Assembly: GCA_045577945.1 (NCBI GenBank)
Contig: JAZNJG010000189.1
Coordinates: forward strand, 1 to 59,505
DNA from: Bacilli bacterium
Lineage (GTDB): Bacteria; Bacillota_I; Bacilli_A; ML615J-28; CAG-698
Length of the DNA: 59,505 nucleotides
Direction: 5' to 3'
Every line of letters begins with the position of its first letter. Position 1 is the stretch's first letter. Made by a program: the position numbers and the translations under genes. Below the pieces are notes generated by a model. That model had not been told where the DNA came from. It made no database searches and saw only the letters and a program-made list of their open reading frames with translations. Of this stretch, positions 3 to 23,585 are shown piece by piece.

Positions 3-2192
3 GAAGTAGTAATCACTGCAAGTCTAAAAGATGTTGAAGGTATTTCAGCCACAATTAAAGTAGTTGTAAAAGCCGAAGAACATACACATGTATATGATAA
101 AGAAGTAGTCGAAGATAAATATTTAAAATCTAATGCTACAACAGAAAGTGCTGCAGTTTATTATAAATCATGTGAATGTGGTGAGTTTGATAAAGAATTA
201 TCTGAAACATTTGAACATGGTGAACCATTAAAACCTATGGTTGTGCTAGTAAATAAAATTGAATGTTCCTTAGGTCAAGAATTAGAATTAAATAAAGGCG
301 ATGAAAAGGAATTAGTAATAACTGTATTACCAGATAACGCTACAAATAAAGAAGTAAGCGTTGTTTCTGAAAATCCTGAAATTTGCAAAGTAGAAGATAA
401 TAAAATTATAGCATTACAAAAAGGAAGTGCAAAATTAACAATTAAAGCTTTAGATGAATCTAATGTTTCTATTGAAATTATTATTACTGTAAAAGACAAC
501 AGCGAAGAAGAACTAGGAAAATATATGGAAGAATTCCTTGAAACTTTCCCTGAAGAAACAATGGATACATTACCTCAAGGAAATGAAATATACAATATAA
601 CATATGATTTTGAGAAAGTTATTAATAGTAAAGGGGAATTATCAAGAGAACAATTTGATACTGAAATTACTGGGAAGGTTATTTTAAGTATAGGCGAATC
701 TTCTTTAGAAAAAGAAGTATCAATATTAGTTTATGGAACATTCACTGATGAAATCGTTAAAGAATTTATGGATGCATTACCAAAAGAAGTGAACGAAAGT
801 ATTAAATTCTTAAGAAGCAGTGAGAAATATGGCGGAACAAAAATTCTTGCTATGGAATCTAGCATGCCTGAGTATTTAACTAAATCAGGAATGTATACAA
901 GACCATTCCATGATGAAGTTGTAATGATTAGAATTAATATAAGAACAACTGAACCAAAAGTATCAAGATATTATGATGTTCCTGTAAATGTTGCGGGGGA
1001 AACTATCGAATATAAAACAAATGCGGTTATGGAATGGTTATTCGGAGAATATAAAGAAAATAGTGTATTATACTATGACTCTCCAGCATTCCCTACTACA
1101 TGTGATACATATGATGCCACAATTAAATGGCTTGATAGCAAAGGTGATGATTTAGACTTTAGTAAAGTAGCTCAAGACCCGGTTTTAGGAGAATCAGTGG
1201 TTTTCAGTGCGAAAATTACAATTAGAGGAGAAACATACACACAAACAGCTGATTACTTTGTATGGAATAAATACTATCAAAGTGACGAAGAAAAATTAGA
1301 TGATTTTGTGAAAGCAATTAACTGGCAAGACATTAGAGCATATAAATACACATCTGCCGCATATTATGAAACTAATTACGGTTATTTACCATTCTATATC
1401 CCAGGAGAATCAGTTATCAATACTGATTATATGTGCGAACTTACATACGGAAGATGTAGAACAGGTATCATAAAAAAATCTACCGAATACATTGTAGTTC
1501 ATGATACAGCAGGTGGAGCACCAACTCATACAGCTGAATCATTTGCTCTAGATTTAAGAAATCAAAATAATAAAGAAAACAATCAATATATTTCATGGCA
1601 TTTCACTGTTGGAGAAGATGGAGTATTCCAAAGCTTACCTTTAGATGAAGTAGCATATCATGCCGGAGACGGTTCATATGAATATGGAGATGTATACTAT
1701 AATAGTACATATAAAAAAGCAGATTGTATTGGTGGCGGTAACAGAAATGGTATTGGAATAGAATCTTGTATTAATATGGGCGCTGATTACAACGTTACAC
1801 TAAGAAAACTTGCAAAATTAGTTGCAGAATTACTTCTTCAATATAATTTAAGTTTTGATAGAATTAAACAACATTGGCACTTCAGTGGAAAAGATTGTCC
1901 AGGCGTAATTAGACACACAGGTAGATGGCAAGAATTCAGAAACTTAGTCAAAATTGAATATTTTGCTAAAACACAATTAAAAGACTCAACATTTGAGTGG
2001 AAATCATTAACTCCTGATTTAATGGATGACACAGGAAAAGTAATCGTTAAAACTGGAGCACCTATGACATTAAAATATAGTGTAAAAGCATCATACAATG
2101 GTGTAACAAAAGAATACGAATTCTCTTCTAATACTCTAAAATTAGAAGATTTAATAGGCAAGGATCTAACTGGAACTAGCAACGAATATTAG
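3..2192 (+). CDS. 5'-partial Ig-stalked N-acetylmuramoyl-L-alanine amidase (Amidase_2); probable lipoprotein starting upstream of the window
   Basis: The frame is open from nt 3 (EVVITASLKD...HTHVYDKEVV...YYKSCECGE), so the ATG at 237 is internal. It has a Big_2-like segment (VLPDNATNKEV), Ig repeats, and the amidase motifs VVHDT, SWHFTV, DEVAYHAGDG, GIGIE and QHWHFSGKDCP. Confidence 0.85.
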   Translation, partial: EVVITASLKDVEGISATIKVVVKAEEHTHVYDKEVVEDKYLKSNATTESAAVYYKSCECGEFDKELSETFEHGEPLKPMVVLVNKIECSLGQELELNKGDEKELVITVLPDNATNKEVSVVSENPEICKVEDNKIIALQKGSAKLTIKALDESNVSIEIIITVKDNSEEELGKYMEEFLETFPEETMDTLPQGNEIYNITYDFEKVINSKGELSREQFDTEITGKVILSIGESSLEKEVSILVYGTFTDEIVKEFMDALPKEVNESIKFLRSSEKYGGTKILAMESSMPEYLTKSGMYTRPFHDEVVMIRINIRTTEPKVSRYYDVPVNVAGETIEYKTNAVMEWLFGEYKENSVLYYDSPAFPTTCDTYDATIKWLDSKGDDLDFSKVAQDPVLGESVVFSAKITIRGETYTQTADYFVWNKYYQSDEEKLDDFVKAINWQDIRAYKYTSAAYYETNYGYLPFYIPGESVINTDYMCELTYGRCRTGIIKKSTEYIVVHDTAGGAPTHTAESFALDLRNQNNKENNQYISWHFTVGEDGVFQSLPLDEVAYHAGDGSYEYGDVYYNSTYKKADCIGGGNRNGIGIESCINMGADYNVTLRKLAKLVAELLLQYNLSFDRIKQHWHFSGKDCPGVIRHTGRWQEFRNLVKIEYFAKTQLKDSTFEWKSLTPDLMDDTGKVIVKTGAPMTLKYSVKASYNGVTKEYEFSSNTLKLEDLIGKDLTGTSNEY

Positions 2193-2241
2193 TTGTATTG
2201 ATCTTATTTGATATATAAAATTAGAAAGGATAAATAAATAT

Positions 2242-4914
2242 ATGAAAAAAATAATATTTGTTCTGACGTTAATGCTAAGTTTATTATTATTAGCTTGTAA
2301 TGGAGAAATAAAATATGAAATATCATTTGAGGGAGAAGACACAATAGAGTTATCTATTGGAGATACTTATGAACTTAAATATTCTCTTACTAATGACGGA
2401 ACAGCCGGAATTGAATTATATAGTGATATAGTTACTTTAGAAGGAAATATGTTAACAGCTGTTAAAGAAGGTTCATCATCATTATTAATATATTGTAATG
2501 AAGATAAAGGAATAACTAAAGAAGTAAATATTATAGTAAAGGCCAAAATATCATCATTAAATATTGATGTAAAAACTGAACTTGTAGTTGGGGAAGAGGT
2601 AGAAATAAAAGTTATTCCTAACGAAGAAGGAGAATTAAATTTAACTTATAGTTTAGATAACGATGTTCTTTCTATTAATGAAGAAACAAAAAAACTTGTA
2701 GCAAATAAGACAGGAAAAGCTGTTTTAACTGTAAAAGATGAAGTGCTAAATATTAGTGCTAATGTTGAAATTACTGTTTTAAACAAGATTGAATCTTTCG
2801 ATGTTTCTGATTTAGTATTAAAATTAGAAGAAGAAAAAGAATTACAAATTAGTTATGATAATACATGTAAAGTTGATTTTATCTTATCAACAAAAGATGA
2901 CATCGTTACAGTTGATGGATTAAAAGTAAAAGCTAACAAAACTGGAAAGACTGTAATTACTGTAACTGATAAGATAACTAACTTATCAAAAGAAGTTAAC
3001 GTAGAAGTAAAGAAAGTATTAACTGATTTTGTGGTTGTATTTGGTGAAGCTGTTGTTGGTAAAGAAGTAACAGCAGATTACTCATATGAAAAAGACGTAG
3101 AAGTTAATTTTGAAATTACCTTTAGTAACGATAATTTAACATTAGAAAATGGGAAAATCATAGCTAAAAAAGAAGGTAATGTAAAGGTTACTGTTTTAGA
3201 AATTAATAGTGGAATCGTTAAAGAATACGATTTAACAGTTGAAAAAGGAAAAGAAGATCCAGATCAATTACTGAATAATTTATTAGACTGGGCAATTAAT
3301 GAAGTAGGAACATGCGGAGAATTTGAAGTGATTCTACCTGAAACTCATCCGGATTATCAATGTGAATATGTATGGGAAAGTAGTGATGAATCTATTTTTG
3401 CCTTAGATGGATTTCTAGAATATGTAGAATTTGATACAGACGTAGACATTACATGTAAAGTAATTTATGAGGGAAAGGAAAAATCAAAAACTTTCACTTT
3501 TACGATTTTAGGATATGCGTTCCAAGAACTTGCACAAAAGTTTGAAAAGCAATTCCCTGGCGGAAGAATTTTCCAAACAATGAATTTAGTAACAAATTAT
3601 CCAGACTATTATGGTGGAACAATTATTAAATGGGAATCAAGTAATCCTGATGTCTTTACGAATAAGGGTGAATATATTAAACCAGTTAATAATACTAATA
3701 TCATATTGTATTATACTATTCAATTAGGAAGTCCAAATCTTTCAAGAAATTTTGAAGTAGAATTAGAAGTTGAAGGAATGACAATAACTGATGTTAAAGA
3801 AGAAATTGTATCTTGGGCTAAAGATAATATTGGTATCAATGGAGCAATCGATGAGAATACTATATTCCCTAACTATTTAGAAGAATATGGTGCTGAACTT
3901 ATATGGTTTGATGCATTTGGCAATCCATTAGTTGTAGAAAAATTTGTTGGAAATCCAATTTATAGTCAAGGTGTCGATGTTCAGTTGAAAATCATATATA
4001 AAGGACATTCAGCTTTAGTAGACTTACACTACAACACATTATCAGCCGAAATTACTGATATGTGGGATGCAATTGAAATATTTACTAATACAATTTCAGA
4101 ATTTAATGTAAGAGAATATGAATATAATTTAGTAAATTGGAATAGTTTTGAAAAAGGATATATTCCATTTTATAACAATAATGACTCTCAAATTATAGAA
4201 AGTATTTTACCATATACATATGGTAAGCAAAGAACTGGTATTAAGAAATCTTCAACTGAATATGTAGTAGTTCATGATACTGGTAATCCAGGAGCAGGTG
4301 CTAATGCAGAAATGCATAATAGATATATTACTAATTTAAATAATGATTCTAAATCAACATCTATTTCTTGGCATTTTACAGTTGATGAAAAATCAATCTA
4401 TCAACATTTACCATTAGATGAAGTTGCATGGCATGCAGGAGATGGTTCAAGAAAATATGGTGAAGTATACTTCAATAACGATTATCAAGCATGGAGTATT
4501 GGTGGCGGAAATTACAATGGAATTGGTATAGAATCATGTATCGATAAGGGTAGTGATTATACAAAAACAATGAGAATACTAGCTAAACTTGTTGCTGAAT
4601 TATTAATTGACTTTGAACTTTCTATAGATAGAGTAAAACAACATAACCATTTTTCTGGCAAAAACTGTCCTCAAGTTATGAGAGAAAACGACAGGTGGAA
4701 TGAATTTATTCTATTAGTTCAATTAGAATATTTTGCTAAGACAACGTTAAAAGGTGTTAAGTTTGAATGGAAATCTTTATCTGATTGCTTAGATAATACA
4801 GGAAGAGTAACATCTGATCAACCTGTAGGAACAAAATTAAATTATCAAGTTACAGCTACTTATCAAGGAGAAAGCAAAACATATACATATACAAGCGTGT
4901 TAAAAGCTAGATAG
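2242..4914 (+). CDS. Lipoprotein with long Ig-like stalk and C-terminal Amidase_2 (XlyA/PlyL-type Zn amidase); tandem paralogue of the upstream gene
   Basis: Lipobox LLLAC and repeated Big_2/atrophied-Ig motifs (WESSNPDVFTNKG). Amidase motifs VVHDT, SWHFTV, DEVAWHAGDG, GIGIE and QHNHFSGKNCP are present. Confidence 0.88.
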   Translation: MKKIIFVLTLMLSLLLLACNGEIKYEISFEGEDTIELSIGDTYELKYSLTNDGTAGIELYSDIVTLEGNMLTAVKEGSSSLLIYCNEDKGITKEVNIIVKAKISSLNIDVKTELVVGEEVEIKVIPNEEGELNLTYSLDNDVLSINEETKKLVANKTGKAVLTVKDEVLNISANVEITVLNKIESFDVSDLVLKLEEEKELQISYDNTCKVDFILSTKDDIVTVDGLKVKANKTGKTVITVTDKITNLSKEVNVEVKKVLTDFVVVFGEAVVGKEVTADYSYEKDVEVNFEITFSNDNLTLENGKIIAKKEGNVKVTVLEINSGIVKEYDLTVEKGKEDPDQLLNNLLDWAINEVGTCGEFEVILPETHPDYQCEYVWESSDESIFALDGFLEYVEFDTDVDITCKVIYEGKEKSKTFTFTILGYAFQELAQKFEKQFPGGRIFQTMNLVTNYPDYYGGTIIKWESSNPDVFTNKGEYIKPVNNTNIILYYTIQLGSPNLSRNFEVELEVEGMTITDVKEEIVSWAKDNIGINGAIDENTIFPNYLEEYGAELIWFDAFGNPLVVEKFVGNPIYSQGVDVQLKIIYKGHSALVDLHYNTLSAEITDMWDAIEIFTNTISEFNVREYEYNLVNWNSFEKGYIPFYNNNDSQIIESILPYTYGKQRTGIKKSSTEYVVVHDTGNPGAGANAEMHNRYITNLNNDSKSTSISWHFTVDEKSIYQHLPLDEVAWHAGDGSRKYGEVYFNNDYQAWSIGGGNYNGIGIESCIDKGSDYTKTMRILAKLVAELLIDFELSIDRVKQHNHFSGKNCPQVMRENDRWNEFILLVQLEYFAKTTLKGVKFEWKSLSDCLDNTGRVTSDQPVGTKLNYQVTATYQGESKTYTYTSVLKAR

Positions 4915-4921
4915 GAGTTTT

Positions 4922-5611: not shown

Positions 5612-5625
5612 TTTAAAAAGTAAAT

Positions 5626-5660
5626 AAAAAAAGGTAATCTGTTTAGATTACCTCTTTTTT
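5626..5660. terminator. Bidirectional intrinsic terminator
   Basis: aggtaatct-gttt-agattacct hairpin flanked by A- and T-runs between convergent genes. Confidence 0.8.
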
Positions 5661-5681
5661 ATAATGATATATAATAAATAT

Positions 5682-6272: not shown

Positions 6273-6295
6273 AAGTCTCTCCTAAAATAACTTTT

Positions 6296-6309
6296 GTAAC
6301 ATATGTTAC
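6296..6309. promoter_or_regulatory. Perfect palindrome GTAAC-ATAT-GTTAC, candidate operator of the adjacent Crp/Fnr regulator
   Basis: 14-bp perfect inverted repeat in the divergent intergenic region. It resembles the GTAAC-N4-(G/C)TTAC motif recalled for clostridial HcpR-type regulators. Confidence 0.65.
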
Positions 6310-6385
6310 GATAAATTTATTATATAATAATTATAATATATTGTCAAATAATATAAAAAATATATTTAAATAAGGAGAAAAAGAA

Positions 6386-8907: not shown

Positions 8908-10449
8908 ATGGAAGAAAATAAAAATGTGGAAAAGGAACTTTTAGACGAGAAAAATGAATCTTTGCAAGAAGACAATTTGGAAGACAATTTGGAAGAAAAT
9001 TTGGAAGAAGATTTAGGAAATGAAGAATCTAAAGATTTTGATAACAAAGTATCAGATACAGAAGTAATTGAAAATGTTGAACCTGAAGATAATTTAGGCA
9101 ATTTAGATGATTCAGAAGAAAATGAGGAATTAGATTCTAAAGATAAAAAGAAAAAATCTAAAGAAAAAAAGAAGAAAAAAAATAAAGAGAGTGAACTTAA
9201 TTTGGAGGAAGATTCTAAACAAGAAGAAACTCAAGAAAAACAAATTTCTTTAAATGATATTGCTCCTCTTTCACCTATTTCTTATGATGAAATATTATTT
9301 AGTGAAGACAAATACACAGTGGATGATGTTATCAAAACTTTAAAGAAAGAAATGAACGATTTATCAAAAGAAGATAACGACAATATTGCCTCTAAATATA
9401 ATGAATATATCGAAAAATTATATAATAGTAAATATAAAGATTGCTATGAAGTATATGGCGTATTAATTTATTATTCTTTTAAACTAAATAAAGATTTAAA
9501 TTATCATTTAGTGTTAGATAATCTTGATCATAACGGCCAAATATTATCTTATATTTATGCGATAATGATAACTAATAACACGAAAGAAAAAAGAATTAAG
9601 AAGAGCATATTAAAAGAGTTACATGCTAATGGTGCTCATAAAACTGAATTAAATAAAGTTTTAAGGGTATCAAAAAATAAAAAAGTATTATTTGAATACT
9701 CAGAAGCTTCTAAAAAGAAGGGATTTAAAAAATACCTAAAAGTCGTTTCAAAATATGCTAAAAAACAAGAAGCGTATGATTCAGTATCAGAATCATTATT
9801 AAGATACACATTTAAAGCTTTCGAGTATTTATTAGTTAAAAAAGGAAATAAATTCTATAATAAATTTGAGTCAAAATTTTCTGATGATTTAAGAATATAT
9901 GCATTAACAAAAATTGCAAAAGGGTTTGGAAAAATAGGTAAATTTAAAACTGCTAAACATTTATTTGAAAAAGTTTTAACATTAGATAATAAAAATTTTG
10001 AAGCATTAGAAGGGATTTTCCTAGCAGAAAATAAATGTAACTACTTAGAAGAATTAGCTTATAAAACAAATATTGATAAAGCAAAAGGATTCAGTGAGTT
10101 TATTGAAAAAGCTAACGGATTAGAAGAAGACAAAGCAAATAAAAAAGTATCTACTTATGTAGAAATTAATAAAAAACAAAAAGAAGATAAAATAGATGAT
10201 ATTTTGACAGTTTTAAGAAAACATATTTCCGTTATTAGTTTTTCTTCAATGCTAATTTTGTGTGCTTTAACTACATTCCTTAATGGATCAGGATTAAAAG
10301 TATTATTCTATATTTCTGTTGCGATATTTGTGGGGGCAAGTTTTATAACTAGAAATATCAAAAAGCACATCGTTAGTATAATTATTAAAACTATAATCGG
10401 ATTAGGAATCTTGCTTGGTGGAATATTATTTTTATTTAAGCTATTCTAG
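8908..10449 (+). CDS. Hypothetical membrane protein: acidic/Lys low-complexity N-terminus, helical TPR-like core, three C-terminal TM helices
   Basis: EDNL repeats, poly-K tract, TPR-like FKTAKHLFEKVLTLDNKNFEAL, hydrophobic C-terminus. Confidence 0.7.
   Translation: MEENKNVEKELLDEKNESLQEDNLEDNLEENLEEDLGNEESKDFDNKVSDTEVIENVEPEDNLGNLDDSEENEELDSKDKKKKSKEKKKKKNKESELNLEEDSKQEETQEKQISLNDIAPLSPISYDEILFSEDKYTVDDVIKTLKKEMNDLSKEDNDNIASKYNEYIEKLYNSKYKDCYEVYGVLIYYSFKLNKDLNYHLVLDNLDHNGQILSYIYAIMITNNTKEKRIKKSILKELHANGAHKTELNKVLRVSKNKKVLFEYSEASKKKGFKKYLKVVSKYAKKQEAYDSVSESLLRYTFKAFEYLLVKKGNKFYNKFESKFSDDLRIYALTKIAKGFGKIGKFKTAKHLFEKVLTLDNKNFEALEGIFLAENKCNYLEELAYKTNIDKAKGFSEFIEKANGLEEDKANKKVSTYVEINKKQKEDKIDDILTVLRKHISVISFSSMLILCALTTFLNGSGLKVLFYISVAIFVGASFITRNIKKHIVSIIIKTIIGLGILLGGILFLFKLF
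8968..9015 (+). repeat. In-frame 12-bp tandem repeat x4 (EDNL/EENL/EEDL)
   Basis: gaagacaatttg gaagacaatttg gaagaaaatttg gaagaagattta. Confidence 0.85.
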
Positions 10450-10471: not shown

Positions 10472-10972
10472 ATGACATTAAAAGAACTTGATAAACTTGT
10501 TCAAAGATATCGTAATGGCGAGAAGGAAACATTTGATGCAATATTCAATGAGACGCAAACAACAGTATACTTATCAGTAAGAGCAATTTTATCAGATACA
10601 GTAGCAATTGAGGACTTAGTACAAGACACATATATGAAAGCACTTGAGAATTTAGATAAATACCAAAGTGGAACGAATTTTAAAGCTTGGATAAGTAAAA
10701 TTGCTAGAAATATAGCAATAAATTATTTTAAAAGAGAAAAGAAACTAGAGCATGTTGAAATTGATGATCCTGTTTTTAATAAGGAATCAAGTGATATTAA
10801 CTTAAGTTATTGTTTAAGTCTTCTTGAAGGGGTAGAAAGGGAAGTGGTAATATACCATCTACTTCTTAATATGAAATTTAAGGATATAGCTAAAATATTG
10901 GAAGTATCTACTTCACACGCTTTTCAAATATACAAAAAAGCTTTAAAGAAAATTAAATCAGAAATAAAATAA
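10472..10972 (+). CDS. ECF-type RNA polymerase sigma-70 factor
   Basis: Region 2 EDLVQDTYMKA...FKAWISKIARNIAINY and region 4 MKFKDIAKIL; 166 aa. Confidence 0.9.
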   Translation: MTLKELDKLVQRYRNGEKETFDAIFNETQTTVYLSVRAILSDTVAIEDLVQDTYMKALENLDKYQSGTNFKAWISKIARNIAINYFKREKKLEHVEIDDPVFNKESSDINLSYCLSLLEGVEREVVIYHLLLNMKFKDIAKILEVSTSHAFQIYKKALKKIKSEIK

Positions 10973-11127: not shown

Positions 11128-13536
11128 ATGAAAAATTTAAATCTACTAAAGATGTTATTTGTGTTTGTTTGTTCATTTGTTTTAATGGCAATTGGCTGTG
11201 GATCCACTGAAGTTGATTATGATAAAATATTAAATGAGGCGGTTACTAAAATTGAAGTTAAAAGTGAAGTCACTGAATCATTCGGTTTAGTATCTAGTGT
11301 GACTGTTTCAGATAATCAAGTGAACATTATTTGGGAACTTGATGGTAAAGAAGTTACAAAAGTTGATGTGGTAAGAACAGAGGAAGATCAAACTTTAGTG
11401 TTGACGGCAACTTATAAGTTAACAATTAATGAAGAAACAAAAGAATTAAAGAAAACTTATCAAGTAAAAGTTTTGAAAAAGGAAGTTATAATTGAAGTAA
11501 ACAAAGAAGAGTTAGTTGACAAAGCTTTAGCTCAAATAGCGTTTGAATCAGTTATTGATAAAAATATTGAACTATTAGATAAAGTTATTGTTGAAGAAAA
11601 AGAAGTTTCTCTAGAATACGAAATTAGTTCAGATGCTATTTCTAAAGAAGGTATAATTAAAGATCTTCTTATAGATGAAAAGGTAACAATTAAATGCACA
11701 GCAAAATATGAAGATGTCGAAAAATCTAAATCTTTTGAAATTACTGTGAAAGGATTGGGAGACGAAAACATTCTTGAAGAAATCAAAGCTGAAATGACAG
11801 AAAAATTATTCACAAATGTTACCGAAGATATTGATTTAAAAGAAACTTATACTTATTTAGGAAAAGATTTACAAGTTAAGTATCAATTCTCTAAAGACTT
11901 AATTTCCGAAAATGGTAAAGTTGTTATACCTGAAACTGATGAAGAATTAGATGTTACTGTTTTAATCATGTATGGTGGAAAAGAATATCAATTAGAAATA
12001 AAAGGTGTAAAAGTGTTATCATATGAATCTCAATTACTAGAAGCATATAATGCGATTGAAATGCCAAAAGAGATTAATGATAGTATCCAATTAATAACAA
12101 AATATAAAAACGTTGTAATTGAATGGTCAACAGATAACTCACGAGTTTTAACTAGTGAAGGTGAGCTTAAATATGTAAAAGAACCAGTAGAAGTTGAGTT
12201 CTCTGCGTTGTTAATTTTATCTGTTGGTGATGAAGAATTCTTCTATGATGCCTTCTATACTATATTATGTAAACCATATGCGGCTGAAAGAAGACTTGCG
12301 TTAGCCCAAGAACAAATAAAAGTTCCTCAAGAAGTGACTTCTAATATGACTCTCACTAATGAATTTAAATATGATGTTACAGGAACATGGTCTTCATCAA
12401 ATCCAGAAATTATTAGTAATATTGGTCTAGTAAATCAAACCGAAAAAGATGTACAAGTAGAATTAGCATTACAATTAGTTTGTGATGGAATAACTAAAGA
12501 CTTAACATTTACTGTGACGGTAAAGAAAGCAGATCTAGATGGATGTGAAAAATATTTTGGCGGACATAATTTATTAGATAGAGCTGTTAACTTTGATAGT
12601 AAAGGCTTTAATAATGTAGAATTAAAGGGTGACAGACTAGAATTAAAAGATGGTGCTCTAGAAGGTTACTATGAATCAAACACATTTAAAGTAAGAGATT
12701 TCTTCTGCCTTGTAGGATCATATTCATGCATCACTTCAACAAATGCAACCGGTGAATTATTGGTTAGTATTAGAGTTGGAGAAAACTGGAGTAAATACAT
12801 TACATATGGTGAATGGGGATTAGGTTTAAATAATCTATATTATGATGATAGTGATAGCGTGGCTAAACTTAGTACTGATGAAATTTTCTCAGTTGGAGGA
12901 GATGCTGATGCCATCAAATATAGATTTGTAATGAGAAGAAAAGACGCTAGTGTAGAATCACCAAAATTGCTATTAGTTGCTTTCGCAATTGAAATGAATA
13001 ATTACTCATATCCAATTGATACTACTGATTTACCTACACAAAAAGATCATGATTTACCAAAATTATATCAACATGATGTTCCTGTAATTGGTGGATCAAT
13101 CTGTAGTGCAACTACCACAACAATGCTTTTAAAGAATAAAGGATTCGATTTCTCAAACAAAGGTTATGCATATGAACATGAATTTATGGCAAATATGGTA
13201 GCTGATAGAGGACATAATAATCCTACATATGGAAACTGGTCATATAATATGATAACAGCCGGAGCATTTGGAGTTGAAGCATATGTAGCGAGAATGTATT
13301 CATGGGAAGAATTGAAAGAATATTTAGCTACAAATGGACCTGTAGGTGCTTCTATTGCTGGTAACTTTGGAATTTATAGTACTGGTGGTCACTTAATAGT
13401 GGTTAGAGGTTACAGAGAAGAAAATGGTCAAACATACGTAATATGTAATGACCCTAATGTTAAATCTGTATATTATGAAGTTACTTTAAGTATTTTCATG
13501 AATGCATGGAGAAATGTTGTATATATCGTAGAATAG
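11128..13536 (+). CDS. Lipoprotein with atrophied-Ig stalk and C-terminal C39-like cysteine peptidase
   Basis: Lipobox MAIGC and Ig repeats (TWSSSNPEIISNIG). The catalytic set is LYQ / ICSAT / GGHLIVVRG / NDPN. Confidence 0.85.
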   Translation: MKNLNLLKMLFVFVCSFVLMAIGCGSTEVDYDKILNEAVTKIEVKSEVTESFGLVSSVTVSDNQVNIIWELDGKEVTKVDVVRTEEDQTLVLTATYKLTINEETKELKKTYQVKVLKKEVIIEVNKEELVDKALAQIAFESVIDKNIELLDKVIVEEKEVSLEYEISSDAISKEGIIKDLLIDEKVTIKCTAKYEDVEKSKSFEITVKGLGDENILEEIKAEMTEKLFTNVTEDIDLKETYTYLGKDLQVKYQFSKDLISENGKVVIPETDEELDVTVLIMYGGKEYQLEIKGVKVLSYESQLLEAYNAIEMPKEINDSIQLITKYKNVVIEWSTDNSRVLTSEGELKYVKEPVEVEFSALLILSVGDEEFFYDAFYTILCKPYAAERRLALAQEQIKVPQEVTSNMTLTNEFKYDVTGTWSSSNPEIISNIGLVNQTEKDVQVELALQLVCDGITKDLTFTVTVKKADLDGCEKYFGGHNLLDRAVNFDSKGFNNVELKGDRLELKDGALEGYYESNTFKVRDFFCLVGSYSCITSTNATGELLVSIRVGENWSKYITYGEWGLGLNNLYYDDSDSVAKLSTDEIFSVGGDADAIKYRFVMRRKDASVESPKLLLVAFAIEMNNYSYPIDTTDLPTQKDHDLPKLYQHDVPVIGGSICSATTTTMLLKNKGFDFSNKGYAYEHEFMANMVADRGHNNPTYGNWSYNMITAGAFGVEAYVARMYSWEELKEYLATNGPVGASIAGNFGIYSTGGHLIVVRGYREENGQTYVICNDPNVKSVYYEVTLSIFMNAWRNVVYIVE

Positions 13537-13690: not shown

Positions 13691-14713
13691 ATGGCTAAAA
13701 TGTTAAAATCAAATCTTGTGCTTAAAGCAAAAGATATTAATGAAATTTGTAATGAATTTGAGTTTGAAAATGTTGTTTATGAAGATGGTGGTTACAAAGT
13801 ATTAAAGAAAGAGACAGAAGGCGTTATTTATTCTCCTGAGTATGAAACAAAAGAATTTAATAAAATCGTAGGTTCATGGTGTGCGCTTTGCGATAATGAG
13901 ACAAAATCAACTATTGAAGTGATGATTTCTGTCTATGCTCATGGAAAATATTCAAAATATTTTAGTTATGGAGAATGGTCTTTAGGTGGAGAAAATTTGT
14001 ATTACGATCAAGACGATGAATATGTTTACATGAGTGTTGATGAAGTAATTTTAAAAGAAAATGAATTAGGTGAAAAGTTTAAATTTAAAGTAGTTTTAAA
14101 AAATGACGCAGTTTTCAAATTAATATGCATTATGATAAAAGCAAAATATTTTGAAGAAAACAAACCTTATGTTGAATTAAATAATATGCCTTCAACAGTT
14201 TTATATGATGTCCCTAAATTAAATCAAAATATGGTTCCTGTTATTGGCAATGAAATGTGTAGCGCAACTACTACCGCAATGTTATTAAAATTTAAGGGTA
14301 TGGATTTCTCAAAATATGACCCAGAATTTGAACATCGTTACGTAGCAACATTAGTTGCTGATAATGGACATCATGCCCCAACATACGGAAACTGGGTGTT
14401 TAATACTACAGTAATGGGTGGTTTTGGATATAATGCTTATGTATACCGTATGTATTCATGGGAAGAATTGAAACACCATTTAGCTAAAGTAGGACCTGTA
14501 GGAGCATCAATTAGAGGAAACACTGGTTTATATAAAACTGGAGGTCACTTACTTGTTGTAACAGGATATAAAGAAGTTGATGGAAAAACATATGTAGTAT
14601 GTAATGATCCTAATATTAATAGCCGTTTTGGTGAAGGATTATTTGTTTCATACGATTATCCACTTGATGTCTTTATGGGATTCTGGCGTGGAGTTGCTTA
14701 TATTATCGAATAA
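13691..14713 (+). CDS. Signal-less C39-like cysteine peptidase, paralogue of the upstream catalytic head
   Basis: No signal peptide. LNQ / MCSATTTAMLL / PTYGNW / GGHLLVVTG / NDPN are collinear with the C-terminal ~330 aa of 11128..13536. Confidence 0.85.
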   Translation: MAKMLKSNLVLKAKDINEICNEFEFENVVYEDGGYKVLKKETEGVIYSPEYETKEFNKIVGSWCALCDNETKSTIEVMISVYAHGKYSKYFSYGEWSLGGENLYYDQDDEYVYMSVDEVILKENELGEKFKFKVVLKNDAVFKLICIMIKAKYFEENKPYVELNNMPSTVLYDVPKLNQNMVPVIGNEMCSATTTAMLLKFKGMDFSKYDPEFEHRYVATLVADNGHHAPTYGNWVFNTTVMGGFGYNAYVYRMYSWEELKHHLAKVGPVGASIRGNTGLYKTGGHLLVVTGYKEVDGKTYVVCNDPNINSRFGEGLFVSYDYPLDVFMGFWRGVAYIIE

Positions 14714-17699: not shown

Positions 17700-17724
17700 A
17701 CTTATTAATAAAAGGTAAAATAAT

Positions 17725-18789
17725 ATGAAAAATTATCGTCAATTAGGAAAAACAAAAATTGAAGTAAATCCTTTAGGATTTGGAGGAATCCCTATCCAAA
17801 GGGTAACACGAGAAGAAAGCAAAGAAATAATTGAAAAAGCTATAGAATTAGGAGTTAATTTTTTTGATTCAGCAAGGGGATATACTTGCAGTGAAGAATA
17901 TTTAGGAGATGTACTTCCAAAATATCGCGATAAAGTGTATATTGCCACAAAATCAATGGCGAGAACGTATGATGATATGGAAAGAGATATTAATGTAAGT
18001 TTAAATAATTTTAAAACTTCTTATATTGATTTATATCAATGTCATAATGTTAGCAAACTGGAAGATTTCGAAAAAATAATTTCAGAAGATGGAGCGATGA
18101 AAGCTCTTATTAAGGCAAAAGAAAAAGGACTAATAAATCATATAGGAATCACTTCTCACAGTTTAGACTTTATTAAATGGCTTCTTGATAGTGAATATAA
18201 AGGTTTATTCGAAACAGTACAAATACCTTATAACTTTCTAGAAACTGAAGCTGAAGAGGTTCTAATAAAGTGTAAAGAACTACAAATAGGAACAATCGCC
18301 ATGAAACCACTTGGTGGTGGTGTAATTGATGATTCAGCCCCCGCAATAAAATTCTTGTTAGCTAATGAGAATTTAAGTGTATTAATTCCTGGAATGGGAT
18401 CAATAGAAGAAGTAGCTAAAAACGTTCAAGTTAAAAAAGAATTTGATAAAGCATTCAAAAACTTAAGTGTATTAAATAAAGAAGAAATTGAATACATAAA
18501 CTCTTTAAGAACTGAAGTTAAAGGTGAGTTTTGTCATCGCTGTGGGTATTGTCTACCTTGTCCAAAAGGAATTGATATCCCTTCGATATTTACTTTAGAG
18601 AATTATTTTGATAGATATGGATTAAAAGAATGGGCAATGACTCGCTATGGTAACACAAAAATAAAAGCTGGAGAATGTATAAATTGTCAAGCTTGTGTAA
18701 AGAAATGTCCATATCAATTAGATATTCCTTTAAGGTTAAAAAGGATTCACCAAAAGTTTAAAAATTATGGGGAAAACAAACATGAATAA
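17725..18789 (+). CDS. Aldo/keto reductase with C-terminal 4Fe-4S dicluster
   Basis: LGFGGIPI, FFDSARGY and IDLYQCH; CHRCGYCLPCP and CINCQACVKKCP. Confidence 0.9.
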   Translation: MKNYRQLGKTKIEVNPLGFGGIPIQRVTREESKEIIEKAIELGVNFFDSARGYTCSEEYLGDVLPKYRDKVYIATKSMARTYDDMERDINVSLNNFKTSYIDLYQCHNVSKLEDFEKIISEDGAMKALIKAKEKGLINHIGITSHSLDFIKWLLDSEYKGLFETVQIPYNFLETEAEEVLIKCKELQIGTIAMKPLGGGVIDDSAPAIKFLLANENLSVLIPGMGSIEEVAKNVQVKKEFDKAFKNLSVLNKEEIEYINSLRTEVKGEFCHRCGYCLPCPKGIDIPSIFTLENYFDRYGLKEWAMTRYGNTKIKAGECINCQACVKKCPYQLDIPLRLKRIHQKFKNYGENKHE

Positions 18790-19534
18790 TATTGATATTA
18801 ATAAAGTAAAGTTAATAACAAAAGTATTGTCTAGGGAAGAGGACGACTATCAAAAGAGACTTCAACAAGTATGTAGATTGAGATATGTTGAAATGATAAA
18901 CGAATATAATCAAAATACTCCAGAAGAAGGTACTGATTTTGATGAATATGATAAGTATTGTGATCATCTTGTGGTTATTGATGAGGTTAGTGATAAAGTA
19001 GTTGGAACGTACCGATTTATACTAAGTGAACATGTTACTAATTTAGATAATAAGTTCTTAACTGAAAACGAATTTAATATTGATGAAGTAAAGAAAGAAG
19101 GAAAAATCTTAGAATTAGGAAGGGCATGTGTAGATAAAAATTACCGAAATGGCTCCGCAATAACTCTTTTGTGGAAAGCTGCGATAAAATATGCGGTTGA
19201 AAAAGAAGTAAGGTTTATGGTAGGAACAGCATCATTTCATGGAGTAGATGCTAAACCTTATGAAAAAACGTTTAAATATCTTGTACAAAACTATAAGAGT
19301 GATTATAACTGTTATGCTATAGGAAATATTTGTCCTATAGATATTTCAGGAGAAATCGTAAGTAAAGAAGAAATTGTCGAAATGCTTCCACCTCTTGTGA
19401 AAGGTTATATGAGGTTAGGCGCTAAAATATCTAAGGATGCTTATTTTGACTATGATTTTAACAGTACTGATATTTTAATTATTATTGACATTGATAATAT
19501 GGATGCTCGATATAAAGCAAGATTTTTAAAATAA
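18782..19534 (+). CDS. OlsB-like GNAT N-acyltransferase (amino-lipid synthesis family)
   Basis: DEYDKYCDHL, VVGTYR, LELGRACV, GTASF, PPLVKGYMRLGAKI and DFNSTD. The second ATG (18782) is preferred because it follows a gggga RBS. Confidence 0.8.
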   Translation: MNNIDINKVKLITKVLSREEDDYQKRLQQVCRLRYVEMINEYNQNTPEEGTDFDEYDKYCDHLVVIDEVSDKVVGTYRFILSEHVTNLDNKFLTENEFNIDEVKKEGKILELGRACVDKNYRNGSAITLLWKAAIKYAVEKEVRFMVGTASFHGVDAKPYEKTFKYLVQNYKSDYNCYAIGNICPIDISGEIVSKEEIVEMLPPLVKGYMRLGAKISKDAYFDYDFNSTDILIIIDIDNMDARYKARFLK

Positions 19535-19564
19535 AAAATGGACGTTATGTCCATTTTATTTTTT
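19533..19564. terminator. Bidirectional intrinsic terminator
   Basis: aaaatggac-gttat-gtccatttt between convergent genes. Confidence 0.75.
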
Positions 19565-19571
19565 AATTATA

Positions 19572-20339
19572 TTAACTTACAATTTTACCATTAATTTTAA
19601 TTAGTAATTCTGATTCAGGCAACACTTCTGGAATCGAAAAAGTCAAGATGTTGTTAGAATATTCAAAAGGAATATTTTTATCATCTATAGTCAAAGCGTT
19701 CTCTTCGTTTAATTTAAAGGTTACAGGGAGTTCATCATATATTTCTACGTTATAAGCACTTATATTTCCTGTATTTTTAAGGATTAAATCGTATGTTAAA
19801 TCAGAATTCAAGTATGTGAAATCTTCTTGAGTTTGTTTGAAACATTCGATATGAGCAAATCCTTGTTTTAGTTTTAGGTCTTTAGATTTTGTTTCTTCGA
19901 CTTCATCGCTAGAGATAGAAATTAAAGATTTAATTTCTTTTACATTGTTTGTAATAGTTTTATAAGATACAACACAAACATCGTTAGGTTCTAAATAGGG
20001 TATTTGAATTTTAAAATTATTATCTTCATATGTGTATGTTAAGTTAATCTCTTGATTATTTAAAAGTGAATATTTTATAGTATTTGTTAGCAATTCTTGA
20101 CCATTGACTAAATCATTAATAACTATATTATTAGTTATTGTGTTACCAGAATTAGTAAGAATGATATTATATGTCATAATATCTCCGGGTTTAAAATAGT
20201 CACTACTAGAAAATTTTCTAGCCAACAAACCCATTTTTCTAACTTCTGTACTAACAACATTTGAAGTTGAAACACCATTTAGATTGACACCATCTAAATT
20301 ATAAGAATATTTTACTCTTGCCATACTTTTAACGTTCAT
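19572..20339 (-). CDS. DUF11 / conserved-repeat-domain protein (two Ig-like units, no signal peptide)
   Basis: PGDIMTYNIILTNSG...VIND and LTYDLILKNTG...VEIYDELP. RBS aaggagg. Confidence 0.78.
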   Translation of the reverse strand: MNVKSMARVKYSYNLDGVNLNGVSTSNVVSTEVRKMGLLARKFSSSDYFKPGDIMTYNIILTNSGNTITNNIVINDLVNGQELLTNTIKYSLLNNQEINLTYTYEDNNFKIQIPYLEPNDVCVVSYKTITNNVKEIKSLISISSDEVEETKSKDLKLKQGFAHIECFKQTQEDFTYLNSDLTYDLILKNTGNISAYNVEIYDELPVTFKLNEENALTIDDKNIPFEYSNNILTFSIPEVLPESELLIKINGKIVS

Positions 20340-20457
20340 AAATCCTCCTTCTCATCCAATATAAACTATTATGTTAAAGGTATAGTGGGAACTATACTGC
20401 ATAGTAAAAAACTATACATATAAATATATGCACATGAGTTAGTAAATATTCCAAAAA

Positions 20458-20787
20458 TTAAAAATATTTTTTATTTATTAAATCAACTAGAGAGTTATAT
20501 CTATTATCGATATCTTTTTTCAATAGTTCAAATTCTTCTGCAACAGTGAAAGAGGGGGAAGTTAATTCCATTTGCGCTTGAATTGTCAACATAGCTTGAG
20601 AAATAAGTTGAAAAAAATTACCGAGAGAATTAAGTTCCGGAGAAGACAAAGGAATAGAGATAATAACTCCGATAACTCCGCCTAACAATCCAAATTCATA
20701 TGGCGGAATATTCTTTAAAAATGAAGATAAAGATTTAAAATCATAGTTTTTAAAGTTAAATAGAGGGTCATCAATAACTATCACCAC
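20458..20787 (-). CDS. Small hypothetical protein, DUF6774-like
   Basis: LSSPELNSLGNFFQLISQAMLT resembles DUF6774-type small proteins of spore-forming Firmicutes. Start uncertain. Confidence 0.55.
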   Translation of the reverse strand: MVIVIDDPLFNFKNYDFKSLSSFLKNIPPYEFGLLGGVIGVIISIPLSSPELNSLGNFFQLISQAMLTIQAQMELTSPSFTVAEEFELLKKDIDNRYNSLVDLINKKYF

Positions 20788-20910
20788 ATAATCATATGAT
20801 GATAAATTTAAAATTAATACATTTATTAATAAAGATTAAAAAATATTAGAAAAGAATCATTAGCAAAAATAAATCTCAAGCATAGTATAAAGTGAAAGGA
20901 AGGTGTGAAT

Positions 20911-21036
20911 ATGGGAAACTGTGGAAACGTTAATCCTTGTTGCGGATTTGGCAATGGAAATAATAGTGGAAGATGGGCATTCGTATTAGTATTATTTATT
21001 TTATTAGTTATTTGTGGCGCAGCATTTGTATTCTAA
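20911..21036 (+). CDS. YjcZ/SscA-family small sporulation-type membrane protein (41 aa; absent from the ORF track)
   Basis: RBS aaggaaggtg precedes MGNCGNVNPCCGFGNGNNSGRWAFVLVLFILLVICGAAFVF*. A Gly/Cys-rich N-terminus plus A.xVLFILL.I.G is the family signature. Confidence 0.85.
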   Translation: MGNCGNVNPCCGFGNGNNSGRWAFVLVLFILLVICGAAFVF

Positions 21037-21051
21037 TAATTTAAACGCAAA

Positions 21052-21312
21052 ATGATTATAAATATGAACTGGAAAGATAAGAAAACAGATAATATATTTA
21101 GAAATAAAGAATTTTTTAATATAAAAGTCGAAGATATTAATATCTTTTTAAAAGAAATGAAAATTAATTTTGATGAAACAATCAAACGTCTAGGGCAAAA
21201 ACTTGAATATAAGATAAATAAAAATAATCAAAAGAAAAGGTTAATAAAGGATATAAATTATAAAGAATTATTAGAAAAAATAAATAAATATTTATTCAAA
21301 AAGATTAAATAG
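21052..21312 (+). CDS. Hypothetical basic protein
   Basis: 86-aa Lys/Asn-rich ORF followed by a terminator. No clear RBS. Confidence 0.45.
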   Translation: MIINMNWKDKKTDNIFRNKEFFNIKVEDINIFLKEMKINFDETIKRLGQKLEYKINKNNQKKRLIKDINYKELLEKINKYLFKKIK

Positions 21313-21342
21313 AAAAGCCTTTTAAAGAGGCTTTTTCTTTTT
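21312..21342 (+). terminator. Intrinsic terminator
   Basis: aaaagcct-tttaaag-aggctttt followed by T tail. Confidence 0.78.
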
Positions 21343-21422
21343 GTAATCAGTGTTTAATTTTTATTTAACTTCTTTACTTCTTATATTTAAAATGATAAAA
21401 TATAAGAAAAGGAGAGTAAAAA

Positions 21423-23585
21423 ATGAATTTAAAAAATATTACACGTTATTTTTCAGTATTGTTATTCATGTTTGCTTTAGTTGTGTTTGTTGGATGTGGT
21501 GAAGTGGTTTATGAACTAACTTTAAATGGCGATGCTAATTTAGAAGTAAAAGTAGAAGAAACTGTTGAATTGCCATTACAATACACTGCAGGAGCAAATT
21601 TAAAAGTAGAAATCAATCCTTCAGATTTAGCCTCATACGAAAATGGTAAATTAAAAGGATTGAAAGAAGGAACTGCTGAGGTTATCGTTTCCTTAGTAGA
21701 AGATGCAACTAAAACAGTAGAAATTACTCTTGTTGTTAAAGCAAAAGATGTAAGCGTTGGTCATACTCACGAATATGATCAAGAAGTTGTAGATGTTAAA
21801 TATTTAGCTAAAGAAGCTACATGTGAAACAAAAGCTACATATTATAAATCATGTACTTGTGGAGAAACTGATAAAGCACAAACATTTGAAACAGGCGAAT
21901 TAGCTGCTCATGTATATGATCAAGAAGTTGTAGATGTTAAATACTTAGCAAGCGAAGCTACAACTGAAAGCCCTGCTAAATACTATAAATCTTGTGTTTG
22001 TGGGGAAACTGATAAAGGTGAAACGTTTGAAAACGGTGAAAAAATTTCAAAGTATACTATCGTATTAGATTATGGATATGATGATAAAGAAGAAATAATA
22101 ACATTTGTTGATAAAGCAGAAGTAGAATTACCTACTCCTACAAGAGATGGTTATGAATTCTTAGGCTGGTTTATTGGTGATAATAAGGTTACTGAATTAG
22201 AAAATCAAGATTATAATTTAATAGCTAATTGGCAAGCTGTTAAGGTATCGATGGAAATATTCACATCAGATGATAAAACAGAATATTACCTAGATGATGA
22301 ATTCTATGTTTATGTTAAGTTTACTCCTGCATCGGCTGCTCAAGATGTTACTTGGAGATCTTTAACTGCTACTAGAGGAAAAGTTTATGAAGATGGAGTT
22401 GTTGAAATCATTAAAGATGGTACACTTACAATTAGAGCTATAACTGCTGATGGTGAATTAAGCGCCAGGATTAATTTGACAATTCTTGATTATTATAATC
22501 CTTATAGATTCTTAGAAGAAATTCATATTCCAGAAGTTGTGGCTAAAACTGTTACTGCCTATGACAGCAATACTGGTTATAAAACATATATACTAGGTGG
22601 TATCACTAATTATATGTTTAAGGATATCGATGTTAAACAAAATATTATTGAAGAAGGACGCGTTAACCGTCCTGGAACAAGTGCGAACGGTAATAAATTC
22701 TCTGCTAAATATGTGACTGTTCACGATGTAGGAGCTAGTGGAAATGCTTTAGCAAATACTAATTATTGTGCTACTGCCACAAATGTTTCTTGGCATTACA
22801 CAGTCGGAAATGATGGTATTTTCCAACAACTACCTTTAAATGAAGTAGGTTGGCATGCGGGTGATGGCACTAGTGTTCCGCTAGAATTTACGAATACGAA
22901 TATTAAAGCTCCGAATGGAAACTATGATCCAGCGAAAGTCACTATCAATCAAACTAGTGGAAACTTTGAATTAAACGGAATTGAAACAACTATTAAAGCT
23001 CCATTAAAACCAAATGGACAAATAGTTTCTAATAATGAGTTACCATATACAGGAATTAATAACTATGTTAATGAAGATGGTTATTATATGTTAAGTAATA
23101 CTCATTGGGATAAAACTTATCAAACTTTAGGAAATTATGGAGGAAACTTAAATAGTATTGGTATTGAAACATGTGTAAATAAGGGTGCAAGTTTATATTT
23201 AACATGGTATTTAACTGCTAAACTAATTGCCACAAATATTTTACCTCGTACAGGATTGAAACCAGTAGATGTAAAACAACATAACACATTTAGTGGTAAA
23301 GACTGTCCTATGACTATGAGACATGCAAACCAATGGGAAAACTTTATGAAGATTGTTTCATTTGAATATAAAGCATATTCATTCTTCTTAACAAAAGGAT
23401 GGACTTTAGAATTAATTTGCGATTCTGAATATGTAACTGGTAGTGGTATAGTAAGTTCTTTACCAGAAATAGATACGACTATTCAATATAAAGTTCGTTT
23501 AGTAAATACAAAATTAGGATTTGATGAAACTGTTACATATAATACATTACTTCCTGCTGCAAGTAACATTGTGGTTAATTATTAA
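21423..23585 (+). CDS. Lipoprotein: Big_2, two His/Cys repeats, InlB B-type repeat, Big_2, Amidase_2 with large insertion
   Basis: Lipobox VFVGC and LPTPTRDGYEFLGWF. Amidase motifs VTVHDV, SWHYTV, NEVGWHAGDG, SIGIE and QHNTFSGKDCP. Confidence 0.87.
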   Translation: MNLKNITRYFSVLLFMFALVVFVGCGEVVYELTLNGDANLEVKVEETVELPLQYTAGANLKVEINPSDLASYENGKLKGLKEGTAEVIVSLVEDATKTVEITLVVKAKDVSVGHTHEYDQEVVDVKYLAKEATCETKATYYKSCTCGETDKAQTFETGELAAHVYDQEVVDVKYLASEATTESPAKYYKSCVCGETDKGETFENGEKISKYTIVLDYGYDDKEEIITFVDKAEVELPTPTRDGYEFLGWFIGDNKVTELENQDYNLIANWQAVKVSMEIFTSDDKTEYYLDDEFYVYVKFTPASAAQDVTWRSLTATRGKVYEDGVVEIIKDGTLTIRAITADGELSARINLTILDYYNPYRFLEEIHIPEVVAKTVTAYDSNTGYKTYILGGITNYMFKDIDVKQNIIEEGRVNRPGTSANGNKFSAKYVTVHDVGASGNALANTNYCATATNVSWHYTVGNDGIFQQLPLNEVGWHAGDGTSVPLEFTNTNIKAPNGNYDPAKVTINQTSGNFELNGIETTIKAPLKPNGQIVSNNELPYTGINNYVNEDGYYMLSNTHWDKTYQTLGNYGGNLNSIGIETCVNKGASLYLTWYLTAKLIATNILPRTGLKPVDVKQHNTFSGKDCPMTMRHANQWENFMKIVSFEYKAYSFFLTKGWTLELICDSEYVTGSGIVSSLPEIDTTIQYKVRLVNTKLGFDETVTYNTLLPAASNIVVNY
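21768..22049 (+). repeat. Tandem 141-bp (47-aa) intragenic repeat x2
   Basis: The 30-mer atatgatcaagaagttgtagatgttaaata is identical at 21773 and 21914. Protein unit HxYDQEVVDVKYL...AT...YYKSCxCGE. Confidence 0.9.

Follow-up and report, generated by a model that had tools for sequence, protein, structure and literature searches.

Stalked amidase genes at the start of the contig

The first 24 kb of a 59,505-nucleotide contig from a Bacilli bacterium (JAZNJG010000189.1, assembly GCA_045577945.1; the whole contig is called the window here and the assembly G000) hold several genes for putative surface enzymes in which a peptidoglycan-cutting head follows a long stalk of immunoglobulin (Ig)-like domains. 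Three of them encode Amidase_2 proteins, predicted to cleave the bond between N-acetylmuramic acid (MurNAc) and L-Ala, and one encodes a C39-like cysteine peptidase. A preliminary description made from the DNA letters had named these four genes, and a check of the open reading frames (ORFs) found 4/4 in place, all on the + strand, with Pfam scores over the cut-offs of 26 bits for Amidase_2 and 24 bits for Peptidase_C39_2. Domains of the Big_2, aBig_2 and Flg_new families were recognised by Pfam upstream of each head. The amidase features are:

3..2192, + strand: P0001, putative lipoprotein MurNAc-L-Ala amidase, open at the 5' end (Amidase_2 73.3 bits, amino acids (aa) 494-634)
2242..4914, + strand: P0002, putative lipoprotein MurNAc-L-Ala amidase, 890 aa, complete (Amidase_2 74.3 bits)
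2242..2298, + strand: signal peptide and lipobox LLAC of P0002, with Cys19 (from the translation; Cys19 in at least 90% of 40 homologues)
2314..3246, + strand: part 1 of the P0002 stalk, four Big_2-like Ig domains, aa 25-335 (all-beta repeats in the model)
3259..4041, + strand: part 2 of the P0002 stalk, three aBig_2-like modules of a helix plus a beta-sandwich, aa 340-600 (Pfam aBig_2 42.6 bits at aa 458-507; secondary structure of the model)
4060..4746, + strand: Amidase_2 catalytic head of P0002, aa 607-835 (Zn ligands H678, H801, C809; catalytic E764)
4756..4908, + strand: small C-terminal beta domain of P0002, aa 839-889 (model; family-wide consensus in the 40-sequence alignment)
21423..23585, + strand: P0003, putative lipoprotein MurNAc-L-Ala amidase, 720 aa, lipobox FVGC (Amidase_2 57.4 bits, catalytic pattern kept)

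The missing 5' end of P0001, 80 codons including the signal peptide and the lipobox LSIGC, was located on contig C208, which in reverse complement has an exact 56-bp overlap with the window start. Upstream of the P0001 start C208 encodes an 839-aa lipoprotein amidase and a 368-aa amidase without a signal peptide, and contig and window together form a tandem array of four amidase genes with P0001 in third place. The same array is found in congeners, for instance on contig C8 of G003 (ORFs of 385, 834, 765 and 822 aa), with a pair of C39-like genes some kb further on. The lipoboxes noticed earlier, LLAC, FVGC and AIGC of the C39-like protein, could all be read, and LSIGC completes them for the truncated gene. 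They were judged from the translations by eye and by regular expression instead of a dedicated predictor. G000 has two matches to Lgt (C171, C27) and one to Lsp (C7). On their sequence features, the window amidases and the stalked C39-like peptidase are predicted bacterial lipoproteins.

The catalytic pattern H/D/E/H/K/C is intact in P0001. Alignment of P0002 with XlyA (3hmb) brought the first zinc His, the Glu of the GIE motif and the H-x7-C pair into register, and H678, E764, H801 and C809 are invariant in the family alignment of 40 sequences, in line with the earlier statement that Zn ligands and catalytic Glu are kept. In the AlphaFold (AF2) model of P0002, which comprises a signal helix, Ig domains, aBig_2-like modules, the amidase and the C-terminal beta domain (mean predicted local distance difference test score (pLDDT) 89.2), the head superimposed on XlyA (3hmb_B/3rdr) with a template modelling (TM) score (target) of 0.93 and a root mean square deviation of 1.6 Å, indicating a fold like that of T7 lysozyme and peptidoglycan recognition proteins (PGRPs); for the amidases the fold comparison rests on this model. 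Since Pfam, alignment with XlyA and the fold comparison all point to the same enzyme type, we assign the window amidases to the XlyA/PlyL-type zinc MurNAc-L-Ala amidases as their predicted activity.

Compared with XlyA the P0002 head has an additional N-terminal GY[LI]PF extension and a 17-aa insert after AGDG. At the same site the Amidase_2 domain of P0003 is split by an insert of ~110 aa (aa ~495-600, window ~22890..23220). The part of a relative's small amidase that is equivalent to the C-terminal beta domain of P0002 scores as aBig_2. No LysM, SH3, SPOR or PG_binding module was found by Pfam in the window proteins at E<=0.01, which agrees with what had been read from the letters. An outside contig search with P0002 returned a single distant match, 'Bacillales bacterium UBA2253', with 40% identity over the head, and 560 family relatives share the architecture.

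The best fold matches of the P0002 stalk are Ig arrays of the S-layer, cadherin and titin-like kind. As an Ig domain measures ~4 nm, the seven-module stalk would, if extended, span very roughly 25-30 nm.

One type of stalk module without a Pfam match carries conserved His and Cys residues (H-x-H ... C ... YYKSC-x-CGE). It lies at window ~81..180 (P0001 aa 27-60) and ~21759..22037 (P0003 aa 113-205) and occurs on further G000 contigs (C3, C15, C30, C179, C190, C198), and 8 large ORFs together contain 19 strict occurrences. The module may serve as a small linker that binds metal.

Expansion of the amidases and use of the stalk for other heads

G000 comprises 2.14 Mb in 208 contigs with 27.6% GC and is 90.6% complete. 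It uses the standard code; an alternative genetic code was rejected, as long ORFs stay open when read with table 11 and tRNA-Trp occurs only in the cca form. Among the 24 runs listed as containing the window sequence none is an RNA run, and 20 runs from 9 studies are animal gut or faecal metagenomes, including goat and sheep.

The preliminary description had proposed to count the stalked architecture throughout the genome and in relatives. Twelve Amidase_2 ORFs, between 368 and 1865 aa long, were counted in G000. Each of the 11 that were scanned (the ORF on C190 was left out) has a single head close to the C-terminus, preceded by Big_2, Flg_new or aBig_2 repeats, and none of these 11 has a wall-binding module of the LysM, SH3, SPOR, PG_binding, CW_binding or Amidase02_C type at E<=0.001-0.01. 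Small signal-less amidases of 368 and 371 aa accompany the stalked ones. In a sample drawn evenly from the class (E<=1e-8), 9/10 genomes of this order have 3-11 Amidase_2 matches; outside the order any match was present in only 37/111 genomes, with a maximum of 5 and mostly in small ORFs. The amidase expansion is specific to the order. One or two large Amidase_2 proteins (~1050-1110 aa) were seen in the class families f13 and f19 (e.g. G105, G128, G139, G079, G068), and from their sequences the stalked architecture appears to extend beyond the order at low copy.

Other ORFs of G000 that bear aBig_2 domains end in quite different heads: Endonuclease I, metallophosphoesterase/5'-nucleotidase, a metallo-beta-lactamase fold, glycoside hydrolase family 18 (GH18, two ORFs) and an OB-fold. 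They lie on contigs C21, C180, C105, C83, C27, C25 and C198, and six start with a lipobox. Thus, the Ig/aBig_2 stalk is a generic display scaffold in G000, which suggests a gut organism with a reduced genome that shows many scavenging hydrolases on Ig stalks, the amidases being the most expanded class.

Intact amidases in relatives without a wall

We compared 40 related genomes of the same order, 24 from the same family and 16 from a sister family (41 with G000). Both MraY and SEDS are missing from twelve genera of the same family, whose genomes are 93-98% complete, and the two genes lie at separate loci in congeners G001 and G005. No penicillin-binding protein (PBP) and only one Mur-ligase-like gene were found in G010 and in G022, and G022, an assembly of three contigs, has no MurB either.

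Amidase_2 matches are present in 11/12 of these wall-less genomes (0, 3, 5, 6, 7, 7, 7, 8, 9, 10, 15 and 15 matches; median 7). In five of them the amidase genes are unbroken ORFs of ~300-1300 aa, with one exception that contains a single TAG, and sampled ORFs from four wall-less genomes open with canonical lipoboxes of the MKK...LVGC type. The stalked amidases of G022 are proteins of 1100-1200 aa, and the split domain of P0003 recurs in the wall-less G010, G015 and G016. The residues H/E/H/K/C are kept in 44/44 domain rows, 32/32 from five wall-less genomes and 12/12 from G000, a few rows being the same gene from overlapping loci.

In a FastTree phylogeny of 41 domain rows, 8/12 G000 amidases, including all three from the window, were closer to an amidase of a wall-less genome than to any G000 paralogue, and the nearest neighbour of P0003 was such an amidase. 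This topology suggests that the paralogue subfamilies are older than the split between walled and wall-less genera.

A MurNAc catabolic operon in the same genomes

MurQ (TIGR00274, over the cut-off) was detected in 32/41 genomes, in 10/12 wall-less genera and in 5/6 congeners, the sixth having a fragment. All four genomes with at most one amidase match (G007, G021, G024 and G032, from three genera) are without MurQ. The walled G001 and G009 and the wall-less G010 and G022 share a gene order of NamZ, GH3 NagZ, AnmK, MurQ, an alpha/beta hydrolase and a giant Big_2/aBig_2 lipoprotein, with another gene in place of NagZ in G010. Pfam assigned NamZ_N/C, Glyco_hydro_3, AnmK and SIS to consecutive genes of G022, with a Big_2-SBP_bac_1 lipoprotein and a DUF624 protein alongside. 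In G000 only the NamZ orthologue was found (52-56% identity), at the start of contig C176.

The N-termini of NamZ and NagZ show no signal peptides in the relatives, indicating that oligosaccharides are probably imported and then cut inside the cell. The presence of AnmK hints at anhydro-muropeptides released by lytic transglycosylases of other organisms. As the wall-less relatives keep both intact amidases and this operon, the amidases would act on foreign peptidoglycan.

The giant lipoprotein (865-2125 aa) always stands beside the NamZ-NagZ-AnmK-MurQ operon (L043:3850-6483 in G022; L042:1575-4172; L044:1272-6239; L045:585-6962). Its ~330 C-terminal residues match no family, and in the ESM Atlas it gave no usable feature match and only structural rows with TM <0.5. 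We regard it as a candidate for the cutting or binding of glycan, a step that is otherwise missing.

C39-like peptidases

The stalked C39-like gene is directly followed by a second one that had been overlooked in the preliminary description:

11128..13536, + strand: P0004, putative lipoprotein C39-like cysteine peptidase, 802 aa, lipobox AIGC (Peptidase_C39_2 55.8 bits)
13691..14713, + strand: P0245, head-only C39-like peptidase, 340 aa, without signal peptide (beta-sandwich plus C39_2, 54.7 bits)

P0004 consists of five aBig_2-like modules, a beta-sandwich (aa 475-623) and a papain-like head (aa 640-802; AF2 mean pLDDT 88.5), and its residues Q648, C659, H755, N774 and D775 are invariant in 35 sequences. 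The open frame of P0245 has 343 codons, only three more upstream of the listed start, and its product is presumably the cytoplasmic twin of P0004. A C39 pair of ~800 and ~340 aa recurs in all six congeners, one copy being partial, and C39_2 genes are present in 36/41 genomes, including 12/12 wall-less ones. Neither protein contains an ABC transporter domain according to Pfam, as the classical C39 type that processes bacteriocins would. A profile search of the PDB with the C39 protein retrieved only the aBig_2 domain of the arabinanase AbnA, the ESM Atlas gave only 'C39 family peptidase' clusters for the head, and a fold search with the whole model was dominated by Ig-array proteins, with nothing for the head.

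Two genes precede P0004 on the + strand. The first (8908..10449) encodes a 513-aa protein with a highly acidic or Lys-rich N-terminal part and C-terminal membrane helices, and the second (10472..10972), just upstream of P0004, a small sigma-70 r2/r4 factor resembling the extracytoplasmic function type. They may be an anti-sigma/sigma pair that controls the stalked C39 gene.

Wall genes of the host

The preliminary description had envisaged a wall-reduced host, a premise that is right for the family but most likely wrong for G000 itself. The G000 assembly gave no match to MraY or SEDS. In the congeners MraY is present in 4/6 and SEDS in 5/6; the mraY cluster of congeners adjoins a gene whose orthologue in G000 stops 118 bp short of the end of contig C118, and their SEDS gene adjoins murB, which in G000 lies on the 2.4-kb contig C97. 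G000 further has two PBP genes with the same lengths and scores as those of walled congeners, MurB, MurA-like genes, and Ddl adjoining a Mur ligase. The host is thus in all probability walled.

Contig breaks in G000 (C118, end; C97; C176, start; C18, start) coincide with the mraY cluster, with the SEDS gene and with anmK-murQ. Three wall-related loci in gaps are more than a completeness of 90.6% predicts if gaps are random, and strain heterogeneity is a possible cause of the breaks.

A proposed role in harvesting foreign peptidoglycan

Taken together, the findings suggest that the stalked amidases serve to harvest foreign peptidoglycan at the cell surface, be it debris, shed muropeptides or the walls of neighbours. 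We put the probability of this reading at about 60%; its evidence is comparative rather than direct. An N-terminal lipid anchor would hold a stalk of Big_2, aBig_2 and Flg_new modules, which would present an XlyA-type zinc amidase head for releasing stem peptides from MurNAc. Trimming the peptides or removing their cross-links is probably the task of the stalked C39-like cysteine peptidase. The products would be imported, and in the relatives NamZ, NagZ, AnmK and MurQ would turn MurNAc and anhydro-MurNAc into N-acetylglucosamine 6-phosphate in the cytoplasm. The signal-less, head-only amidase and C39 twins may finish the imported muropeptides by analogy with AmpD, so that the same cut would be made twice, outside on the polymer and inside on imported muropeptides. 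Escherichia coli AmpD, the analogue of the signal-less amidase, is likewise an Amidase_2 enzyme, and Bacillus subtilis YkfC, a cytoplasmic NlpC/P60 peptidase, is a possible counterpart of the C39 twin. Walled members may also channel the products into the synthesis of their own wall; for wall-less members the products would be food only. Domain architecture, lipoboxes, catalytic residues, the fold, the retention in wall-less genomes and the co-occurrence with MurQ are observations within this scheme; the true substrate, which way the flux runs, what the C39 head does and how long the stalk is are inferences. What the locus offers is known enzyme families in an uncharacterised architecture and ecological role.

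Several observations weigh against harvesting. As G000 is probably walled, its own wall may be the target of some paralogues. Among the 26 MraY-positive genomes the median is likewise 7 Amidase_2 matches, so wall loss did not raise the number of amidases. MurQ (over the cut-off) and AnmK were not found in the G000 assembly, where their locus appears to fall in gaps. G020, with 15 amidase matches, and G011 have amidases but no MurQ, close linkage of an amidase to the murQ operon was observed only in G009, where a 370-aa signal-less amidase adjoins it, and the co-occurrence counts come from related genomes and are hence not independent. Among glycan cutters, GH73 was present in 2/41 and GH25 in 4/41 genomes (SLT, MltG, NlpC/P60, CHAP and M23 were not searched for), so that neither is a general partner and the shortening of glycan strands for import is left unexplained. 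Finally, a PDB sequence search returned no characterised close relative of the C39 head.

The use of foreign peptidoglycan, which the preliminary description had proposed, is nevertheless backed by the wall-less relatives, which keep both the enzymes and the MurNAc operon; its choice between contact lysis and scavenging is one that sequence cannot make. A bolder version of harvesting would hold that wall loss freed members from self-protection and led to unrestrained arrays of stalked hydrolases, making them grazers or predators on the walls of others. Stalked forms outside the cell and head-only forms in the cytoplasm, each with amidase and C39-like heads, would make up a two-compartment digestion line, the bacteriolysis long known from rumen anaeroplasmas would be explained in this way, and the C39-like head would be a new class of stem-peptide peptidase. 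We consider this version doubtful.

The enzymes could instead be ordinary autolysins that remodel, split or turn over the wall of their own host, the stalk letting a membrane-anchored enzyme reach through the Gram-positive wall. The two PBPs, MurB, Ddl and Mur ligase of G000 and the MraY and SEDS genes of congeners would be compatible with such a role, and domains of the XlyA/CwlA type are classic for autolysins or endolysins. Genomes without MraY, SEDS or PBP, however, keep orthologous subfamilies in which lipoboxes and catalytic residues are intact, and the stalks are still long in the wall-less G022. Twelve copies in a 2.1-Mb genome contrast with at most five in the 111 class members outside the order, and no wall-binding or septum-targeting module was found in 11/12 G000 amidases. 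We therefore judge it unlikely that autolysis is their main function.

It is similarly improbable that they are weapons first, lysing living neighbours on contact for predation or interference, with wall-less producers immune and nutrition secondary. Wall-less cells would need no immunity gene, the stalks vary in length (proteins of 720 to 1865 aa), and Amidase_2 endolysins applied from outside lyse Gram-positive cells. In intact Gram-negative cells, in contrast, the peptidoglycan is out of reach for an amidase alone. Rumen anaeroplasmas do include bacteriolytic strains, as cited in the portions available of PMC5165256 (Robinson et al. 1975) and PMC8941964. Yet the MurNAc catabolic operon and the head-only cytoplasmic twins indicate consumption, walled producers would need self-protection, for which no candidate was seen, and the same scaffold bears purely scavenging enzymes (nuclease, nucleotidase). 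A generic stalk with scavenging heads favours harvesting over a dedicated weapon, while leaving room for killing.

A role directed at the animal host is very unlikely. Here the heads would bind or destroy immunostimulatory muropeptides in the manner of PGRPs, or adhere, and the C39-like peptidase would cut host proteins. The animal gut habitat, the Ig-like nature of the stalks and, weakly, the Atlas cluster label that makes the GH18 stalked lipoproteins EndoS-like would fit. Conservation of the Zn site and Glu in 44/44 rows, however, marks the heads as enzymes and not mere binders, the link to MurQ, AnmK and NamZ is metabolic, and nothing connects the heads with host substrates.

Although the closest solved relatives, XlyA and PlyL, are prophage enzymes, it is next to inconceivable that these genes are degenerate prophage endolysins fused by chance to surface repeats, given the lipoprotein signals, the 560 relatives of the same architecture and the tandem array conserved across congeners; a prophage lysis cassette was likewise rejected on the neighbourhood, the conservation and the lack of a C-terminal wall-binding domain in 11/12 G000 amidase ORFs.

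Neighbouring genes

Between the four genes lie those for a Crp-like regulator, a sigma factor, an RNase T-like protein, an RluD-like pseudouridine synthase, an rRNA methylase, LigT, an aldo-keto reductase, a GNAT protein and YebC, and the S10 ribosomal operon follows. No phage or holin gene was found among the 20 neighbouring ORFs scanned, which bears out the earlier impression. As housekeeping genes intervene and the amidases are part of an expansion seen across the order, the four genes form neither an operon nor a discrete system, contrary to the single set that had been suggested.

The GNAT gene (18767..19534, + strand) resembles N-acyl amino acid/autoinducer synthases (Acetyltransf_5, FeeM) and adjoins the gene of a DUF11/DUF7507 surface-repeat protein (19572..20339, - strand).

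Comparison with known systems

The evolutionary setting is the one outlined by Field, Bowerman & Hugenholtz 2024 (PMC10868615), who, in the text available, described the orders RF39, RFN20 and ML615J-28 as mixing walled and peptidoglycan-deficient members, reduced-genome gut Bacilli with repeated wall loss, and suggested a need for scavenged muropeptides. The terms amidase, autolysin, hydrolase and recycl do not occur in the main text of that paper, although its supplementary tables may list such genes. Wang et al. 2020 does not mention amidase or murQ. In the literature searched, with subscription journals and supplements outside its scope, no account of stalked amidase arrays came to light for Bacilli that lack or are losing their wall. 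If the harvesting reading is true, an order of common uncultured gut and rumen bacteria, including wall-less members, lives partly off the walls of others, and the enzymes provide both a concrete gene set for peptidoglycan turnover in the gut and a feeding rationale for lineages on the way to a mycoplasma-like state, for which the main text of Field et al. 2024 named no enzymes. The Ig/aBig_2 stalk would then be a lineage-wide display scaffold for scavenging enzymes.

Anaeroplasma bactoclasticum and other bacteriolytic rumen anaeroplasmas are similar in being wall-less anaerobes of the gut or rumen that lyse or recycle bacteria, according to the accessible parts of PMC5165256 and PMC8941964. 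No genes have been assigned to anaeroplasma bacteriolysis in the literature searched, and the genes described here would, if harvesting is right, be candidates for this old phenotype. The wall-less Spiroplasma melliferum has a murP gene for MurNAc use, but what is available of that report describes only this phosphotransferase system (PTS) transporter gene and no surface amidase array (PMC3563533).

Tannerella forsythia, a MurNAc auxotroph that salvages the peptidoglycan of cohabitants with NamZ1/NamZ2, likewise uses foreign peptidoglycan in a host-associated community by means of NamZ-family enzymes (bioRxiv 10.1101/2021.12.02.470905, as far as its accessible text goes). It is Gram-negative and builds its own wall from the salvaged material, which the wall-less members of this order cannot do, and the front end of the process here consists of arrayed, stalked amidases that are lipoproteins.

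Peptidoglycan digestion by B. subtilis requires NagZ, an amidase and NamZ together, with MurQ consuming MurNAc-6-P, and the operon murQ-murR-murP-amiE-nagZ-namZ follows the same logic as that of the relatives, where NamZ, GH3 NagZ and MurQ are encoded together (PMC8054146, in the sections available). The same sections report NagZ, AmiE and NamZ as secreted and MurNAc as entering via the MurP PTS (PMC8054146), whereas NamZ and NagZ have no signal peptides here. AnmK is present here in addition, and the substrate-binding protein (SBP) lipoprotein suggests uptake of the ATP-binding cassette type. The amidase step would be carried out by many stalked Amidase_2 lipoproteins, while AmiE belongs to a different enzyme family, and the pathway extends to organisms without a wall of their own for recycling.

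The XlyA/PlyL/CwlA-type enzymes (PDB 3hmb, 3rdr, 1yb0) share the fold, the His/His/Cys zinc site, the catalytic Glu and ~33-34% identity over the head. They are proteins of ~150-300 aa that stay in the cytoplasm until holin release or are secreted, and they have wall-binding domains, whereas the enzymes here are predicted lipoproteins of 720-1865 aa with multi-Ig stalks and no wall-binding module. Their heads also add the GY[LI]PF extension, an insert of 17 to ~110 aa and a small C-terminal beta domain, so that endolysin-like heads with new inserts and no wall-binding domain are at hand, directly testable on Lys- and diaminopimelic acid (DAP)-type sacculi.

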